Source: Intoshia linei
Lineage: Eukaryota > Animalia > Orthonectida
Length of the DNA stretch: 64,000 nt
Assembly (NCBI GenBank): GCA_001642005.1
Contig: LWCA01000062.1
Span: 1 to 64,000 of the forward strand
Direction: 5' to 3'
A program made the translations under genes and the position numbers. Shown piece by piece: positions 13,278 through 51,532 of the stretch. Each line of letters begins with the position of its first letter. Position 1 is the first letter of the stretch. The notes beneath the pieces were generated by a model. The model was not told where the DNA came from and did no database searches. It saw only the letters and a list, made by a program, of their open reading frames with translations.

Positions 13278-16200
13278 ATGTACAGAACAAGAAATAATGT
13301 TCCCATTTTTAGTAATGGTCAGGGAAATAGATCAATTCCAATTTATCGCGTCAATCCTCCAGTATATGCACAGCAAAATTCACAATATTCACACAAAAAA
13401 CACATTTTCCCTCAACAAGCGTACCAAAACGGTCAATATAGAGGACAAAATATAATGAATATAAATAGATTAAATCAAAATCGAATTCCCATTCCTATTC
13501 GATCAGTAAACACATATTACACACAGAATCCAAGATTGAATCAAAATGTTAGAAATGCGTATAATTCTAATAATCAACCTTATATAACTAAAAAAACTCA
13601 AATTTCGGTGCCATATAATCATAGACTTCGACAAAATTTTGTTCAAAACCCAAATTTAATGAATCGTTTTATCTGTAGACCCGATTTAAATAATCAAATG
13701 AATTTACAAAATTTGGATTCAAATTATCATAATGGTGTCAAGGAAGAAGTTATTACAATGCATTTTATTTTTGTTGAGGTAACATTTACTAGAATAAGAT
13801 AATTTTAAAAAAGTAATTGTTAGAACGATGGGAACAAAATTAGGGACTTTTGTTGTCTGAACTTGGCTCTGAAATTATTTTTCAAATTTTATCCTAGTCC
13901 CCACAGCGGCTTTTAGCAATACCCTCAGTTAAAGATGAATCCTTTAAGACTCTATTATTCTTGTTTTTTCCTCTCTCCTCTTGTAAGGTTACCCCACAGC
14001 GGCTTTTAGCATTACCCTCCGTTAAAGATGAATCCTTTAAGACTCTCTTATTCTTGTTTTTTTCTCTCTCCTCTTGTGAGGTTACCTCACAGCGGCTTTT
14101 AGCATTACCATCCGTTAAAGATGAATTCGTTAAGACTCTCTTATTCTTGTTTTTTTCTCTCTCCTTTTGTGAGTTTACCCCACAGCGGCTTTTAGCATTA
14201 TCCTTCGTTAAAGATGAATCCTTTAAGACTCTATTATTTTTGTGTTTTTCTCTTTCCTACGTCAGAGTCCCCTGTAATGATTAAAGAATAACATTTTAAA
14301 TCAATGAAATAATACTGTAGTCTGCGATAATCATCACATTATCGTTTTTTCAAAAAATTTAAAAAAATTTATAAAAATTAACTGGATAATTTAAAATTTG
14401 AGTGGATATAAATAATTAAATTTTCAGCATGCCAGTTATAATATTTTTTTTAGCTTACACCTCACACCACGTCAAAATTAACAAAATTGAAGCATGCTAC
14501 AGCAACAATTTTCCATAATAATGTAGAAAAAAATACTAAATATGCACTGAAAACTGGAAATAAATTTACTTGGAATTTCGATACTAAACTGTAAATAAAT
14601 TACAAACTTGAGATTTTCAGAGTCCTTTGATAGCATCAGTACCAAATTTTAGACACGACCATAATGTATGATTAAATTGACTTAATTTTCCGACGGTCAC
14701 CATTCGCACGTAAAATAGAAATTAATAAATATTAGTCTTACACATGGTATACACAGCTACAGGCCGAACCTACCAAGCTCCAGTTCACCCGATATAGAAA
14801 AATAGGCCTTTAAACATTAAAAAAAAATATAATATCATGTAGACCTAGTCACGTTTCCAAGTCTTTTGACTTGAAATTTTAAATTAAATACTCAGAATCG
14901 TTATGATAGGTAACATTACATTAATTAAATAATATTTGAATTATAAATAATATAATTTACTTTTTAATGATAAATAAGATATTAATTAATATAATTTTAA
15001 TTTTATTAATGATCAATTTGGAAAAATATGGCTCCTATTTTAGAGGAGTCTACACACGGTAGGTTCGGAATGAACCCTACAGGGCTGTCATTAAATAAAG
15101 AATACTGGGTCGCACATTTTTATATATATATTTTAAATTTTTGAAAATAATGGGTTTTTTGGATTGTTTACCATGAAGATGTAAAATCTGAGGAAAAAAT
15201 AGAACCAAATTGAAAATGGTACAAAATTAAAATATTAGCTCTGTGTTGGATATTTTTGTAAAATTTATTATTAATAATTTAGTGAAGCATCTCCGGGACA
15301 TGGTGAATTCGTAATTAAAGTGTACAAAGTGGTAATATTTACTTTTAACAGCATATCATCGTTATGATTATCATCATTGATGAGCATATGACTTCTTGCA
15401 ACATTTATAGAACATTTGGAATGGTATAAATTTATAATTTTTCGTTTAACCAGTAAACAAAATCTAAATCAAATATAAATATTAAGTGTCAATTCCTGTT
15501 TGATTTATATTTTTTGTGATAAAAATCAATCAAACGTCATTAAAGTTTCATTGTTTATTTAGCATAAACCTTGAGAGTAAAATGTTGATAAAATAAAAAT
15601 TTAGATTTATTTATAGAGAACTCTTTAAGAAATAAAGAAATATTCAATACTAAGAAAACCTAAATTCAATTTTTAATAATTAGAAGTCATATTATTACGA
15701 TTTTTAATAAATTTTTTTTGTAATATTTCCTGGTAATTTTAATTTAATAGTCCGTTATAAATTTTATAATTTATTACAGGTTCGCCACGACAAAAGTGTG
15801 GGATCCCTGGCTTATAACTTAAGACTTATACTGTAATGCACTAATAATAAGTTTTGGACATTTTTTACTATTATAACTTTATAAAATACTAATTATATTT
15901 TTAATGGACGTAATATTCATAAAATGATACTCGTAGTAATTTTCTGATTAATTTGTAAAATCTTGACTTTTTGGTCTTATATTTGCTTTTGAACTATATT
16001 TTTTAATGTTGCGGCCCGTGAAATTTGTAAAATTTATTTTGTGGCATTCAGTCGCCATATGTTTGGAAGACCCGGTTATATAATATGAGGTTTCTGATAT
16101 TTTTATTCTTAACTCACCCGTCCGTTTTTCTCCTTCGTCTCCGCGGAAGGTCTCTAATGTAACTTTTAATGGCTATTAATATTTATTATTATTAATGTTA

Positions 16201-43912: not shown

Positions 43913-46900
43913 ATGTCTAAAGATTTTTTCATGAGATATTATGTCGGGCATCGAGGAAAATTCGGTCATGAATTTTTGGAGTTTGAAATCAAAGGCGATG
44001 GTATTTTTTTATAAGCATGTACTATTTTTAGGAAAAATCAAGTATGCTAATAACTCAAACTACAAAAAAGAAACTCTCATTAAAAAAGAGGTTTTAATTT
44101 TAATATTATTTACTATCGCACGAAATTTTTCAATAATATAAGAAAACCAGTGCAAATATGCAAAGTAAATGATGACCTGATGACATTTTTCTTGTATTGA
44201 AATTTATGAATAGGTTAATTTGGCAAATCTCACAAAATTTTCATTAACACGTTCTAAAAATGAACTATGTGGTGTGGACTAGGGTGTGCAATCGATGAAA
44301 TTTATTTAAATTATAAATTAGCAACCCTACTTGTGACCCATGACTGAAAAAAGCGTTGACCTGATTTATCATATAAACATTTTATTAGGCTTATATAAGT
44401 CAATCAACTATTGATGAAATTATTCGAATTATCAAAGAATCACAAATAGTTGAAGAGAATGATGAAGTTTGGCCAGAAGGAAATAGAATCGGAACCCAAG
44501 TATATTTTAATTTACTTACCATTTTAAAGTGATTTATATTCACATTTAGGAATTAGAAATTAAACTAGGAAACGATCACATTTCATTTAGTACCTGTAAA
44601 ATAGGTATTTTTGCTATTTTCAGTAATTTAATTTTTTTAGCCAAAATATCTGATACCGACAAGTGCAAGTAATTTTTCTTTTAAAGTATTATTATATTCT
44701 ATACCAGAAGGGAGGATTTACTGTCTGAAGGCCGCACTAGCGTACCAAAAAAATTTAAATTTAATACAGCCGTACTTCTCATGGGGTGACTAATTTTATT
44801 GGGTGGTGAATATAAAAATTTTACCAATCTTTAAGGAAAAAATCCCTCTATGTGATCCCAAAAGAAAAAACATTTTACCAACCTTTAATAAAAAAATCGC
44901 TTTTGCTAATATTTTTCTGAAAGATCTCATTTTACCAAAAATTAATTTTTTAAAAATAATATAATAAATTTAAATGAAGAATAATTCAAATTGTTCAGAA
45001 GTCCGCATGCGGCCTTAATGTCACACTTTCCCCACTTCTGTTCTAGTCTATTTCATCTTTATGTCTATTATATATCAGTATGTTACAATATAAGAAGTGG
45101 TTTTTAAACATAAAACACTACGGACCGCTATTTTTCTTAAACCCTCATAACTTAATGGACTAAAGTTTTTATATATAATTAAAAAATTATCAATACTAAT
45201 TCAATGTAATTTAATGGTCAATTCATGAAAATAAACTGAATTTTTCATAACTGAATCAGGGTCGTGAAAATCCAGCAGTAGAATTGGGACAGATGAAAAT
45301 TGTAGGACCCATATAAATTTTTTTTAATGAAACATCTTTAGATTATTTAATCAATTGTTTATTGTCTAAAAATTAAAAATAGCATTGTTCATTATAAAAT
45401 TTTCCCACATTACATATTAGCAAATTAAAATTGTGGCTCCTAGTTCTCTTCTCCACGGTCTGAGCTGAATATACTATTCTCAAGACCACCACAAAGTAAA
45501 AAATAGGCGGCTAAAAACTATTGCTAATGAAAAAGTGATACGTAGTATAATAATAACCGAGCTACTTTTCCACGGCTTTGACTTACACTTTAAATTTGAT
45601 ACACAAAACTGTTATAGTTAAAACTATAATTTGGAAAACGATGCCGCGATTTTACAAAAATTTTATCAAGGTACCGAAAGGGGCTTTGAGACGATAGTTT
45701 GGTTGTGCTATCTAAATTTTTAATGTTGATTTTAATTCAATTTAACATTTGGTAAATTCAAAAAATTTGCTTGATAAAATGTGTTTTTGACCGGGAAGAT
45801 ACAAATTTTTGAGGTTAAACTTTTTTTTCTGTATCATGAAAGAAAACAAGAAAAATGCTTTAAATTTTAATATTTATAATATTAAAATGGTTATTTTGAG
45901 TTTTTCATTGTGACAATGCAAAAATTTGTATACTCCCTCGCAGGAATTTTGCAATTATTAGAAACTAGTCTCAGTGATACTCTAAGGGTCTGAATTTTTG
46001 ATGTATTAATCAGAGAAGAAAGATCTATTGTAGGCTAAAAAAAAATAAAAAAATGGACCGAATTAATTTGTAGAAATTTACCTTTTTCATTTATATGTAG
46101 ATATGAATGTCTTAACAATTTTGCAAAACAATAAATATAACTATTTATTGATCATACAATATAATTATGCATATATCAAATTTCCATTATTCATTATAAC
46201 CTCGTACATTTTTGCATTAAATTATTTATGTAGCCTCATAATTATGTCTTTTTTTTTAAAAATTATTTCTGGACAATATGAGATATTTTCTGCTATACAT
46301 GCATTTTCGAATTGAAGTTTGAACCATCATCTGATTTTCCATAATTGACCATAGATTTTCTACTTGGGGTATATCAGGAGAATAAGGAAACCAACCTAAT
46401 AATTTTATTGATTTAGCAGGAAACCTTTCCCTTGTTTTTTGATCACATGAAGTCTAGCATTATTTTGTTGATAGACAAAGCCAGGAACTATGTTACTTAG
46501 TTGAGTAAATACATCTTCAAATAAAATTTTTTTATAAGAATCGCTATTAACAGTATGGTTCAATTTCCTAATCATAACTTTCCTTGAAGATGTTAAACAA
46601 CCCCAAATCATTACGGATCCACCTCAAATTGATCTTTTCGTAATTTTGATGGTTTGCACGACATGAGATAATCACAATCATCTAAGGAAAATATAAATTC
46701 ATCCGAAAATACGATTTTATCGATATCAACCCTATTAAAAAAGGTTGCGTACAAAATTTAGGCGGCCATTCTTGTATACATCAGTCAATGTCAGTTTTTG
46801 CAATGAACGTCGATACTTCAAACCGCTATTATTAAGGGCCCGTAAAATAGTTACTCTTGAAGGACCACATCGCAGCACGGGCAGCAACGGATGTGGATGT

Positions 46901-48581
46901 AACAACCCTTCTAGATTTTTGTACCCCATCAGCAAACTTTTTAATTGCTTTTTAAATTATTTCTTGTTTTAAAGTTGTAATTCGCTTCGATTTAATTGAT
47001 TTTTATTCATTTGAAATGTTATAACTTGTTCTAAGGGAAACATTGCAGGTTTTTGGGATATTTACCTTTTCGATTTTATCCTTCAAATCTTTTTTTATTA
47101 ATTTTGTAACAAAATAATTAAAAACTTCAATTTCTACGACTTGTTTCAGATTTTTTTACCAATGAAAGATCTTGCCAAATCGTTTAATATATAAAAAATT
47201 GAAAAACATAGCATGTAGTTTAGATTGGTTTATATCAGTGATGGCAAAGTACGTGTTTGCGTGTAAAAAATACACACTTGAAAAAATATATAAGTTGACT
47301 TCAAATAAAAAATTCAAAGATTTATAGCCAATTTTTCAAATTGCGTGGGTCATCCTCTAGTTGGATTTCATTGCATTATACACCAAGAAGTACTAAGCTT
47401 TAAAACAGCTCTGAGTCACTTAAATATGGTTGTTATCACTGCAACCAAAATCATTAATTACATCCAAGCACGCGCCTTACACAAAAGAGAATTCACTTTG
47501 ATTTTAAAGGAAATAGAATCAAGTTGTAATGAACTGCTTATGTACAGCAATATCAAATGTTCAGTAAAGGTAAAGTTCTTGAGCGCTTTGTGGAATGCTT
47601 ATCAGAAATTAAAACATCTTTAAGATATAAAGATAATTTTTAATTAGATTATAACGATTGGATTGTTAGTGTTATGTTTTTTACTGACCTTTTATTGCAT
47701 TTAAATGAACTTAACCTTAAATTTCAAGGGTACGGGAAGACTTGTAATGTTTAGTATTATTATGGCATTTGACTGTAAACTATCAATATTCTATCGTGAT
47801 ATAGAAAATAAAGATTACAAATGTTTCCCTAAATTGAAAAAATTCATGATAGAATCAAATTTTTAAATATAAATAAATGTAAAAATTATTTTTTTAACTT
47901 ATTTTTAATCAAGTTGTTCGACTTAATTGATGGTTTGGATTGACCTAATATTTTTTAAATAAAAACAGAAAAAAATTTCTGAAAATAGTATTAAATTTAA
48001 CACACCTAGTTTTAGTTACTGCCATCACTGGTTTATATCAATTTTAAAATTGCTGCGAGGGAGTATACTATTAAGTAGCCGATAATAGATTAAAGATTGG
48101 AACCACTAGACTCAGAGTCTAACCTATCGTACTAGAGACCCCTCTTAGGTGGGGTCGACAACATTTTTCCAAATTGACCATTAAAAAAATTTATATTCGT
48201 TAATATCAACTATACATGTATTTTGTGTTAACTTTAAAATGTCTAACCAACAACATTAGTGAGGTGGTTAGGGCTTATATTTGGTCGTCATCGTTTGTGA
48301 AATTTTTTTTAAGTGCCTATTATTCATTAGCAGGTGTCTTCGAACTGGGTCGACTCTGGCTAAACTAACTGTATAAGTGTCATTGTTCCATGATTTATTA
48401 ATGGAATAAGTATTGTGAAATTTGTTAGTTTTAGATAAAATTCGTAAATATAATTAATATTGAGGCATTTATTCAATTTAGAGATAAAGAAGGTCTAACA
48501 GTTTTCCACTATTTTGTTCAAGACATGAAGGCAATGGTTTTCTCTATAATAGGACTACATTTCAAGATAAACCCTATATAG
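43913..48581 (+). CDS. mago: Mago nashi (exon junction complex core subunit)
   Basis: [62 protein letters not shown]; 6 exons including a 28-nt exon (44641-44668) and a TE-filled last intron of about 3.8 kb. Confidence 0.95.
45933..48063 (-). mobile_element. Decayed Tc1/mariner-superfamily transposon in the mago intron
   Basis: TA|CTCCCTCGCAG ... CTGCGAGGGAG|TA; transposase relics [33 protein letters not shown] with stops and frameshifts. Confidence 0.8.
47236..48030 (+). mobile_element. Internally deleted hAT (Buster/Charlie-type) element nested in the Tc1 relic
   Basis: TIR CAGTGATGGCA / TGCCATCACTG; perfect TSD GTTTATAT; transposase relic [24 protein letters not shown]. Confidence 0.9.
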
Positions 48582-48646
48582 GAATATGTTTAAATATATT
48601 AAATTTTAATACAAAATTTTAAATTTTTTTGGAGATTATCGTTGAT

Positions 48647-51203
48647 TTATTTCATTGTTCTCCATTTTGACTCGGATTCATATTTTGAACATCCAACGTT
48701 AGAACTTGAGATATAGGTGTTTGGTGCAGATGTGACAGATAGTTTGATTTTTTTTGGTATGCTGTTAGATTGCAAGACTGATCGATCTGAGCATATTCTT
48801 GATTTTTGTTGCCATACATCTGAGGTTGGTTTATAGGTTTGTAAATTTCTCTGTAAGATAATGATTGCGTTGTCGGATAATTTGACATCAGTCCTGTCGT
48901 CTCCATTGGATTCCTGGAAATCTTCTCGTACATTTGAGTGTTCGGGTGTTGTTCCAATAACCAATTTATCGATTCCACCGTTGTGCATGGGCTCTGCGGT
49001 ATTATCGAGTTCTCCATCTCTAGGTATGGAATGGCATATTCCTCGCTGATCATTGTTTTGTTCAGATTGTTGCGATTTTGCAACAAGTAATTTAGCCGTT
49101 GTGTCAAGTTTCTGTCTAAAAATGGAAATAAAAAGGCAAATAATTATTTAGGCAAAGCAATAATAAATTTTTTTTTACTACTCTAAAAAACACACAACTT
49201 GTACACAACTTGTACCTTTGACATTTTTTTCAAGTGTTTTGATAAGGTGTATAGTGGAATCAATAATATTGAGTTTGGTGTTGGGTTTGTTGACAATATC
49301 TTCAGATTTTTCAATCATCTCTTTGAGCGTCTGAAATGATTCATTCATATCTCGCACTCGCACACTAAAAAATTATTTTTGAACAAGGACAACCCAGTCG
49401 GTAACATTAGCTATAACGCACACCTCAAATGGAACCAGTGTCACCCTATCAAAAACAATGAGTTTAAACCCTATTTTAGCAAAGCAACTATTACAATTTT
49501 TATTGAAAGAAACCTAAGTTGACGGTTTTTATTTTGCAAGTTTACAATTACAGTAGCGGAACTCTGCAGTATCATGAGCTTTGTCATGTTCTGGCAATTG
49601 CCGCGAAAAGGGCAGATTATTTTTCCAAGTGTGTTATAGGCTTCGTTAATATCACGGACACGTAAACTATAATGTATATAATGTTCAGACGGGGCTGACT
49701 TACCGTTCTCTCTGGTTGTTAAGTTGTCTTCGTATAATTTCCTTCTTTGTCTTATTCTCTGGGGCGTTTAACTCAGTGTCTCTACAAATAATTACATTAA
49801 GACGTGTACATTAAATTACTTTTCTGTAGTATTTACATTGACAGGGTTAAATGGAATGAGTTTATTGTATTGGGCGTCAAAGGAATTATGAGCAAAATTG
49901 TCGTTTCCTGGAAATTTTTCTCTTCTGACGTAATGAGATTTTACTTCAAAGTTTTTGTATTCGTTTAGTTTTTCTTGATTTTCAATCACAATTTGAGAAT
50001 TATTAAATTGATTTATACTGTGTATATTTTGTTGTTCTGTCAGTAAACGTAACTGTTCAGAATTATGGATAATATTTTGAGCTCCTTTATTCAAAAAATC
50101 GCCATATACACTGGATTTTTGAGTATCGTCGTTCATAGGTTTTGATTCTTCAATCTAATTTCATTTGTTAGTTTTATTAAGTATTTGTTACGTTTTTTAA
50201 AGAGTTGCTTATCAAGTTTTCGCAGTTGGTTAATATTTTTTCGTTCCAATCTAAAAATTATTTTCAAAACAAACACAATCAACCTTCTATTTGATTGATG
50301 TCTTCATACATATCGGAGTCGATTTGTTTGTTTGGGTGTCCAGTATTATCATTATTAATCTACGTTTATATTTACATAACACTTTATTGTTTATTAAAGT
50401 AAGCTTAATTTAAAATTTCAAAGTAATCATTACAGTCTGCAATGCTTCGATTAAATTGCCCATGTATACCATACCCATTAAAACATGTTAACTGGCAGTC
50501 ATTGAATTAAAATCAAAAGCCCAGAAAACTACCAGCCTGAAGGTGACACAAAAAGACTGAGATTAGCCACTTATGTAATTCAATGGCTAAAAATGAATTA
50601 AAAGTTTTTTCATCTTAATAAAAATGAGAGCAATCTGGTATTGCCTATCAGTCAATTCTGACAAGGGTGCAATATAAAAACAAAAAATACACTGTCATTG
50701 GATATCTGATTATAGTCATTCGAAAATTCGGAATTTTGAATATCATAAAGGGATACAGAATTGTCAGTGTTTTTGCTGGCTAAAAGATAATTAGACTATA
50801 TTTGGAAGGAATACTTTGTGAAATGAGTTTATCGTTAGCCACAGCATATGTTCCCACAGAAAAATTCTGAGACTCGTTTGATGTGTAAACATTATAATTA
50901 ACAGCATCACATTTTATATCATAGTCACAATTGTAAAATGTCATATTTTTCTTTTTAATAGAATCATTAACGTCTGAAGTGGACTAAAAATTAAATTATA
51001 TACTATCATCTTACATCATCTCGTAAGTTTTCATTAGAATCTAAAAAATGAACATTTACTTTACTTTTTGGAGATGAAATGTCATATTCAGACTCTGCAC
51101 GAGAATCCTGAAATAATAAAAAATTAAACAAAAAAATTAATACTATTACACTAGATGACCACTCGTTTTCTCTTTTTGAAGTAAATTTTGTTTCAGAATC
51201 CAT
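48647..51203 (-). CDS. Class I bHLH E-protein (daughterless/TCF3-4-12 family) with duplicated HLH exons and a dual-frame last exon
   Basis: Basic exon 49704-49781 (RRQLNNQRER); HLH exon A 49514-49666 (LRVRDINEAY..TKLMILQ); HLH exon B 49216-49364 (VRVRDMNESF..KPNTKLNII..LEKNVK); terminal exon from 49115 (DRNL). The 5' exons (from ATG 51203) are less certain. Confidence 0.88.
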
Positions 51204-51532
51204 AATTAAAATTTAGAAAACATAAGTATTGTAAAAAATTTAAATTAAATGTACGTAGAAAAATAAACTCTATTTGTAAACAAATTCATAATTAGTGTAA
51301 ACTAGGATATACTTCAAATTCTGTGTTGCATTTAATGTTTGTTTAGAATTACACGATTCAGACAAGGTTAATAATAGGTTCAATCAAATTATAAAACATA
51401 ACCAAACAAAACATGAATACATTGCTTTTGTTTGATTTTACCGCTGAATGAAATACTACGTGATGATTTTAAATTAAAATGTAAAATATTCATTTATTCA
51501 ACCAAAAAATAACAACTGACACATGACTTGTT

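Follow-up and report, generated by a model that had tools for sequence, protein, structure and literature searches.

A last exon open in two reading frames behind a pair of HLH exons in a putative E-protein gene of Intoshia linei

The last coding exon of a minus-strand gene in the orthonectid Intoshia linei can be read in two frames over nearly its whole length, and the question raised by this locus is whether the second frame is open by chance or is used and, if used, what brought it into use and what keeps it free of stops. The exon, here called T, lies in a 64,000-nt stretch of contig LWCA01000062.1, the whole of which was analysed and is referred to as the window (GC content 21-34% per kilobase). 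The initial annotation had described two frames open for about 155 codons with stops 5 nt apart, and this description holds: counting from the acceptor at 49115, the frame beginning at 49114 has 155 open codons and ends at a TAA (48649-48647), the frame beginning at 49113 has 153 and ends at a TGA (48654-48652), and the remaining frame contains 12 stops. The 42-codon stop-free extension noted upstream of the ATG at 48988, up to the acceptor, is likewise correct. The dual-frame stretch measures about 460 nt in an exon of 469 nt. After the residues of their products, the first of these frames is referred to as S/D/K and the second as Q/N/P.

Gene identity, exons and splice joints

The S/D/K frame matches, at 100% identity, P0001, a gene prediction named by NCBI a hypothetical protein of Intoshia linei, whose N-terminal part agrees with the model built from the upstream exons. 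All eight PDB matches of P0001 are E2A/TCF3 or TCF4 chains, and by this similarity the gene is identified as an E protein of the daughterless/E2A/TCF3 type; seven non-self matches from a separate search are all named E2-alpha. Two exons, A and B, each encode a helix-loop-helix (PF00010; E 2.3e-5 for A and 3.6e-6 for B) belonging to a bHLH closest to E2A/TCF4, and they are 39% identical to each other over 46 residues. Seven exons upstream of exon Q (49820..51260, minus strand) translate without a stop in the model. The features are collected in the table.

Features of the putative E-protein locus and its convergent neighbour, with positions in the window
Feature	Position	Strand	Basis
Seven shared upstream exons	51260-51149, 51106-51015, 50983-50815, 50779-50691, 50359-50284, 50250-50192, 50154-49820	-	contig joints
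Exon Q, shared; first part of basic region, ends inside Arg codon	49704..49781	-	translation, joints
Intron Q-A, 37 nt	49667..49703	-	contig joints
HLH exon A, 153 nt; starts in phase 2, ends in phase 2	49514..49666	-	Pfam HLH, joints
Intron A-B, 149 nt	49365..49513	-	contig coverage, one A-B joint
HLH exon B, 149 nt; starts in phase 2, ends in phase 1	49216..49364	-	Pfam HLH, joints
Intron B-T, 100 nt	49116..49215	-	contig joints
Exon T, last coding exon, read in two frames	48647..49115	-	ORF translation; acceptor 49115 used by A-T and B-T
Second AG, four bases into exon T	49112..49113	-	sequence
AATAAA hexamer overlapping the S/D/K stop codon	48646..48651	-	sequence
Convergent mago nashi exons	44641-44668, 48482-48581	+	Pfam E 1.9e-10 (last exon)

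Because exon A ends in phase 2 and exon B in phase 1, exon T is read in two frames: joined to A it continues in the S/D/K frame, and joined to B in the Q/N/P frame. The translated models have no internal stops and comprise 524 aa for A-T, with the S/D/K tail, and 521 aa for B-T, with the Q/N/P tail; a model containing both A and B (572 aa) is also in frame and carries the Q/N/P tail. Two further features of the donors are recorded here. A GT at 49523-49522 (minus strand), 10 nt upstream of the donor used by exon A, would, if used, end the exon in phase 1 and lead into the ancestral frame, and no joint from it is listed among the contigs of three runs. The start of intron B-T (49215-49194, minus strand) contains an 11-nt unit repeated twice, duplicating the donor sequence.

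Transcript data are the contigs of three runs (X1, X2, and X3) from one study, whose run type is unrecorded and which were taken as cDNA because they contain spliced joints with GT-AG ends; all 13 listed joints have CT..AC ends, that is, GT-AG introns on the minus strand. The joint Q-B (49364/49704) is present in all three runs, Q-A (49666/49704) in two (X1 and X2), B-T (49115/49216) in two (X2 and X3), and A-T (49115/49514) in X1 only, as a single contig whose shorter side has 30 letters, one fewer than the 31 required for bridging. In none of the three runs are A-T and B-T found together. The A-T joint skips 398 nt and the B-T joint 100 nt, both landing at 49115, and an X3 contig of 2,107 nt spans the first exon through B into T. 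Spliced contigs thus enter exon T in both phases, so that the dual coding proposed in the initial annotation is supported, together with a cause that it had left unnamed, the pair of HLH exons of unequal phase lying just upstream. Both frames of exon T are very probably used in transcripts.

The choice between the two exons may not be strictly exclusive. A spliced A-B joint occurs in one low-depth contig of X2, contigs giving no proportions, and intron A-B is unspliced in one contig each of X1 and X2. The contig depths of Q-A and Q-B vary between runs and were not taken as expression levels. No listed joint matches the P0001 model, in which A and B are followed by a 12-residue extension into intron B-T (49178-49215) fused to the S/D/K frame; contigs splice across this extension, though contigs do not show absence, and the P0001 annotation is probably wrong. 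RNA structure was rejected as the cause of exon choice: of 10 pairs tried, the best duplex, between introns Q-A and A-B (-22.2 kcal/mol), was equalled in 41 of 1,000 shuffles and is absent from the regional fold, and the folding z scores are -1.23 for intron A-B and -0.30 for exon T. Further upstream, X2 contains a low-depth alternative joint (50359/50434, minus strand), and contigs cover 50360-50720 in X1 and 50434-50720 in X2, within and around the 331-nt intron, which suggests an alternative donor or retention in that intron over 50434-50720 (minus strand).

At the 3' end the AATAAA hexamer is a likely poly(A) signal. The contigs stop at 48602 and 48629 in X1 and X2, positions that as contig ends cannot fix the end of the RNA. 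The stop codon of the convergent mago nashi gene lies 66 nt from that of the E-protein gene, and one X3 contig crosses both 3' ends. A loose end at 48482, considered as a 3' UTR intron of the E-protein gene, belongs instead to a plus-strand joint of mago nashi. The last mago nashi intron (44669-48481) measures 3.8 kb, as against 31-331 nt for the introns of the E-protein gene, and contains, at 46735-46953, a fragment of a Tc3-type transposase whose Pfam match (E 4.2e-5) lies below the cut-off, and a segment at 47309-47866 that presumably resembles a hAT transposase, a likeness that Pfam does not confirm. Elsewhere in the window, at 13897-14281, a stretch that appears repetitive holds overlapping open frames of 128 codons on the plus strand and 120 on the minus.

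Openness of the second frame

The chance that a second frame would be open was obtained by an exact calculation over synonymous codons in which the protein of the other frame is held fixed. Given the Q/N/P protein, the probability of an open S/D/K frame is 4.7e-7 with the codon usage of the gene, 2.3e-5 with uniform usage, and 1.1e-4 with the usage of the exon itself; given the S/D/K protein, the probability of an open Q/N/P frame is 5.0e-4, 8.2e-4, and 1.1e-3, respectively. Chance openness therefore ranges from about 5e-7 to 1e-3, depending on which frame is fixed. The naive estimate of about 1e-5 in the initial annotation falls inside this range as a whole and is too low with the S/D/K frame fixed, for which the figure is nearer 1e-3. 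Codon shuffling, proposed there as a check, showed an open alternative frame to be rare: with each frame held in turn and the exon's own codons shuffled among synonyms, the other frame stayed open in 2 and 4 of 50,000 trials, and with codon order shuffled, in 0 of 50,000 in each of two tests.

The Q/N/P frame has 29 codons at which the T-ending synonym would create a stop in the other frame; 11.6 such codons would be expected, and none is observed. Openness exceeds chance in every third of the exon and is weakest in the last (P 0.004, 0.003, and 0.083). As a control within the window, all of the 26 other stop-free stretches of at least 100 codons carry at least three stops in each alternative frame of the same strand, the longest open run in an alternative frame among them being 79 codons.

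These values bear on one alternative, namely that only the Q/N/P frame is used, the A-T joint being a minor mis-splice or a product of assembly and the second frame open by chance. The joint is indeed known from one contig with a short side of 30 letters, and splicing of exon A to the second AG (49113-49112) would put it back in the Q/N/P frame and could thereby return it to the ancestral frame. Weighed against this, the probability of openness is 1e-4 to 5e-7 for exactly the frame that the donor of exon A predicts, none of the 29 codons at risk makes a stop, and no joint from exon A to that second AG (49514/49111) is listed among the contigs of the three runs. We regard this explanation as very improbable.

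Origin and maintenance of the two frames

The reading that we favour, and hold to be probable, is that either A or B is spliced to a single last exon, giving two stop-free frames and likely two full-length transcription factors whose tails are kept open by selection. Both mRNAs would be translated, and with both stops lying in the last exon seen, neither would be a target of junction-triggered decay. Exon B would retain the ancestral phase-1 donor, the Q/N/P frame being ancestral at least at its start, and the donor of exon A, 7 nt past the ancestral position, would shift reading into the S/D/K frame, from which selection would then have removed the 7 to 12 stops expected. A single splice choice would in this way exchange both the helices of dimerisation and the complete C-terminal tail, and leave the first half of the basic region common to both products. 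The two products likely differ in their dimerisation surfaces and, entirely, in tails of about 150 residues.

The direction of this change is suggested by homologues. Of the 152 that contain the HLH motif, 74 go on into an ERNL-type motif; in many others the next residue is Gly, which a gene caller reading past a phase-1 donor would be expected to produce. The B-T product aligns to the homologue profile without gaps through RNL, the alignment of A-T ending at the exon end, with a difference in profile score of only about 1 bit. Within the stretch of ERNLNPKAACL type, only RNL and the final Leu are retained in register by isoform B, and isoform A does not have the stretch. The donor of exon A lies 7 nt beyond the position homologous to that of exon B, and since B-T continues the conserved ERNL motif, it is likely the donor of exon A that moved by 7 nt, opening the second frame. 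Exon A would thus have lost the ancestral donor, and the Q/N/P frame is likely ancestral at its start.

Beyond the start of exon T the codon evidence points mildly to S/D/K as the more native frame. Its codon adaptation index (CAI) is 0.66 vs 0.57 for Q/N/P, and the ancestry of Q/N/P is for this reason supported for the first dozen residues only. It could accordingly be proposed that S/D/K is the main or older frame over most of exon T and Q/N/P a secondary one, more easily opened, in keeping with the probability of only 5e-4 to 1e-3 for an open Q/N/P frame given S/D/K, with the codon use of S/D/K nearer to the gene's own, and with its smaller wobble distortion (z -1.8 to -2.7, vs -4.2 to -5.6 for Q/N/P). 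The B-T product retains the conserved phase-1 junction and the RNL motif, however, and B-T is the best-supported transcript, found in two of three runs and in the long X3 contig. Moreover, constraint on both frames would confound the codon test: the third positions of S/D/K are the second positions of an N/Q/E-rich protein, and these would mimic AT-rich wobble. Precedence of the S/D/K frame accordingly appears quite unlikely.

The tails themselves differ in make-up. The Q/N/P tail contains 36 Q+N and 12 aromatic residues among 153, and the S/D/K tail 31 S+T, 21 K+R, and 20 D+E among 155, with one KKIK motif. The likeness of the Q/N/P frame to an activation domain, suggested in the initial annotation, finds little in its favour: the most acidic window of 39 residues has a net charge of only -6, and there is no significant family match, the one Pfam match being weak (E 0.29). 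Protein, Pfam, and ESM Atlas searches detected no relatives of either tail outside the gene, the ESM Atlas giving no usable match for either, and neither tail could be aligned to the Mytilus tail. Both tails are low in folded character in single-sequence structure models, in which mean pLDDT values of 33.0 and 36.8 indicate confidence too low for use.

Selection on these tails as proteins was sought in wobble positions and in base differences. After conditioning on the other frame being open, the wobble positions of Q/N/P remain distorted to the extent given above; among single-coding controls, exon A (z -5.7) and one of 11 control ORFs (z -4.6) are as deviant as exon T, and the Q/N/P wobble lends weak support to constraint at the amino-acid level in the S/D/K frame. 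Two base differences are found in the 469 nt of exon T and none is listed in 1,312 nt of the other exons. One changes Asp to Asn in the S/D/K frame and is silent in Q/N/P; the other changes both proteins, with Ile to Met in one frame and Tyr to Cys in the other. On these very thin data, the check for suppressed variation proposed in the initial annotation points the other way, the only two differences listed in the gene both falling in exon T, and neither of them makes a stop in either frame.

The same observations may be read in another way: both isoforms are made, the second frame being kept free of stops for no other reason than that a premature stop would leave a long 3' UTR and invite decay, with the S/D/K tail as tolerated filler. 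The stops, 5 nt apart at the AATAAA and 66 nt from the stop of the convergent gene, are placed as they would be if both frames had been extended to the end of the message; the tails are little folded, and both base differences alter the S/D/K protein. In the available text of a study of C. elegans, decay-sensitive isoforms are put down to long 3' UTRs (PMC13247117). Against this stand the wobble of Q/N/P, distorted beyond what stop avoidance would produce although its controls are unclean, and the need for a benefit at each step in a stepwise loss of about 7 to 12 stops. Avoidance of decay as the whole explanation is in our view unlikely while deserving to be taken seriously, and we lean towards selection on both tails as protein. 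A more far-reaching proposal, which we put forward tentatively and consider somewhat doubtful, is that an old, frame-preserving HLH pair was rewired in orthonectids by the 7-nt donor shift into a regulated, stage-specific switch with two selected, overprinted tails.

Age of the exon pair and relation to known systems

The HLH motif occurs twice in 11 of the 155 non-self proteins examined. A second copy with the same start in the basic region is found in Macrostomum (P0012), Cyprideis (P0015), Darwinula (P0076), and Hyalella (P0024) and in the proteins P0060, P0063, and P0151, and the Intoshia pair resembles these tandem half-bHLH E proteins of protostomes in that its second copy begins in mid-basic region and lacks the first half; the tandem copies in three vertebrates and one tardigrade repeat the basic region as well. 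These tandem homologues are gene predictions, not transcripts, and alternative use of their copies would be a matter of inference. In P0060, P0063, and P0151 all six HLH copies are followed by Gly, as in read-through of a phase-1 donor, so that both copies there likely keep one frame; the pair of Intoshia, by contrast, shifts the frame. In an HLH tree of 29 distinct segments and 48 columns, whose bootstrap had not settled, exon A groups on a long branch with molluscs, Ridgeia, and the first flatworm copies (support 94/97), and exon B is unplaced. A single HLH type is present in all 10 Liolophura, all 7 Mytilus, and both Saccostrea records. On these comparisons the HLH exon pair may be old. In Liolophura, the E-protein isoforms P0113 and P0174-P0182 have a single HLH in common, and the stretch immediately preceding it comes in three versions; this hints that the first half of their basic region is encoded by alternative exons.

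E12 and E47 of vertebrates share one tail, with which P0003-P0011 are consistent. According to the accessible portions of two reports, they arise from the mutually exclusive exons 18a and 18b of TCF3 and differ in DNA binding (PMC6795145, PMC6317319). The Intoshia gene is like TCF3/E2A in being an E-protein gene with two homologous bHLH exons used alternatively, of similar length and each joined to the same flanking exons, and the first residues of the two exons, Leu in A and Val in B, fall at a point where two E2A PDB chains also differ. It is unlike TCF3/E2A in that its exons start inside the basic region, the first half of which is shared, whereas vertebrate tandem predictions repeat that region, and in that the exons differ by 4 nt and so change the frame of exon T, whereas E12 and E47 have one common tail. 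On E12/E47 the accessible part of PMC5381572 gives gene counts only, and the main text of PMC9741552 makes no mention of TCF3.

Conservation of frame forms part of a working definition of mutually exclusive exons in the part of PMC3228551 consulted; at 153 and 149 nt, with end phases 2 and 1, exons A and B depart from it. Mutually exclusive exons of C. elegans are given as 100% frame-preserving, and a number of human non-triplet cases as decay-sensitive, in the available text of Athavudeen et al. (PMC13247117). The same text reports 54 dual-coding events in C. elegans, enriched for DNA-binding proteins, in regions mostly shorter than 200 nt with a maximum of 829 (PMC13247117). For human dual-coding regions, the portion available gives a mean length of 95 +/- 92 nt and a maximum of 1,878, with 347 of 1,407 set by distinct upstream exons (Goubert et al., bioRxiv 10.64898/2026.02.24.707805). 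Exon T falls within splicing-dependent dual coding as defined by at least 60 nt and a frame set by splice choice, with about 460 nt, which is unusually long for such a region, and an A-T joint taken from one contig. It is unlike the human and C. elegans regions in that both products are nearly equal in length and neither is truncated, and its trigger is a homologous exon pair, unlike the frame-preserving pairs of C. elegans. Splicing-driven dual coding and the E12/E47 exon choice are each known, and their coupling was not found in the literature, of which coverage is incomplete. Among the sources searched, which largely leave out subscription journals and supplements, no paper was found on an Intoshia linei bHLH, or on UPF1 in nonsense-mediated decay or the reading frame of mutually exclusive exons in Intoshia, and in literature listings, covering few subscription titles, neither this gene nor E-protein exon pairs of protostomes appeared in any title.

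A frame-shifting homologous pair rescued by a dual-coded exon would escape pipelines that look for preservation of frame, and P0001 fuses both exons. If the proposed history is right, the locus would show overprinting in a transcription factor of an animal, in a form that can be dated and whose trigger, the 7-nt donor shift, is visible, and it allows a clear test of selection at the level of protein against the mere avoidance of stops. A regulated choice would, if real, alter the E-protein partner of class II bHLH factors in both its helices and its tail of about 150 residues, so that a single gene of a strongly reduced animal would in effect supply two transcription factors. This suggests one route by which a parasite of greatly simplified organisation could retain diverse regulation with a compact gene.
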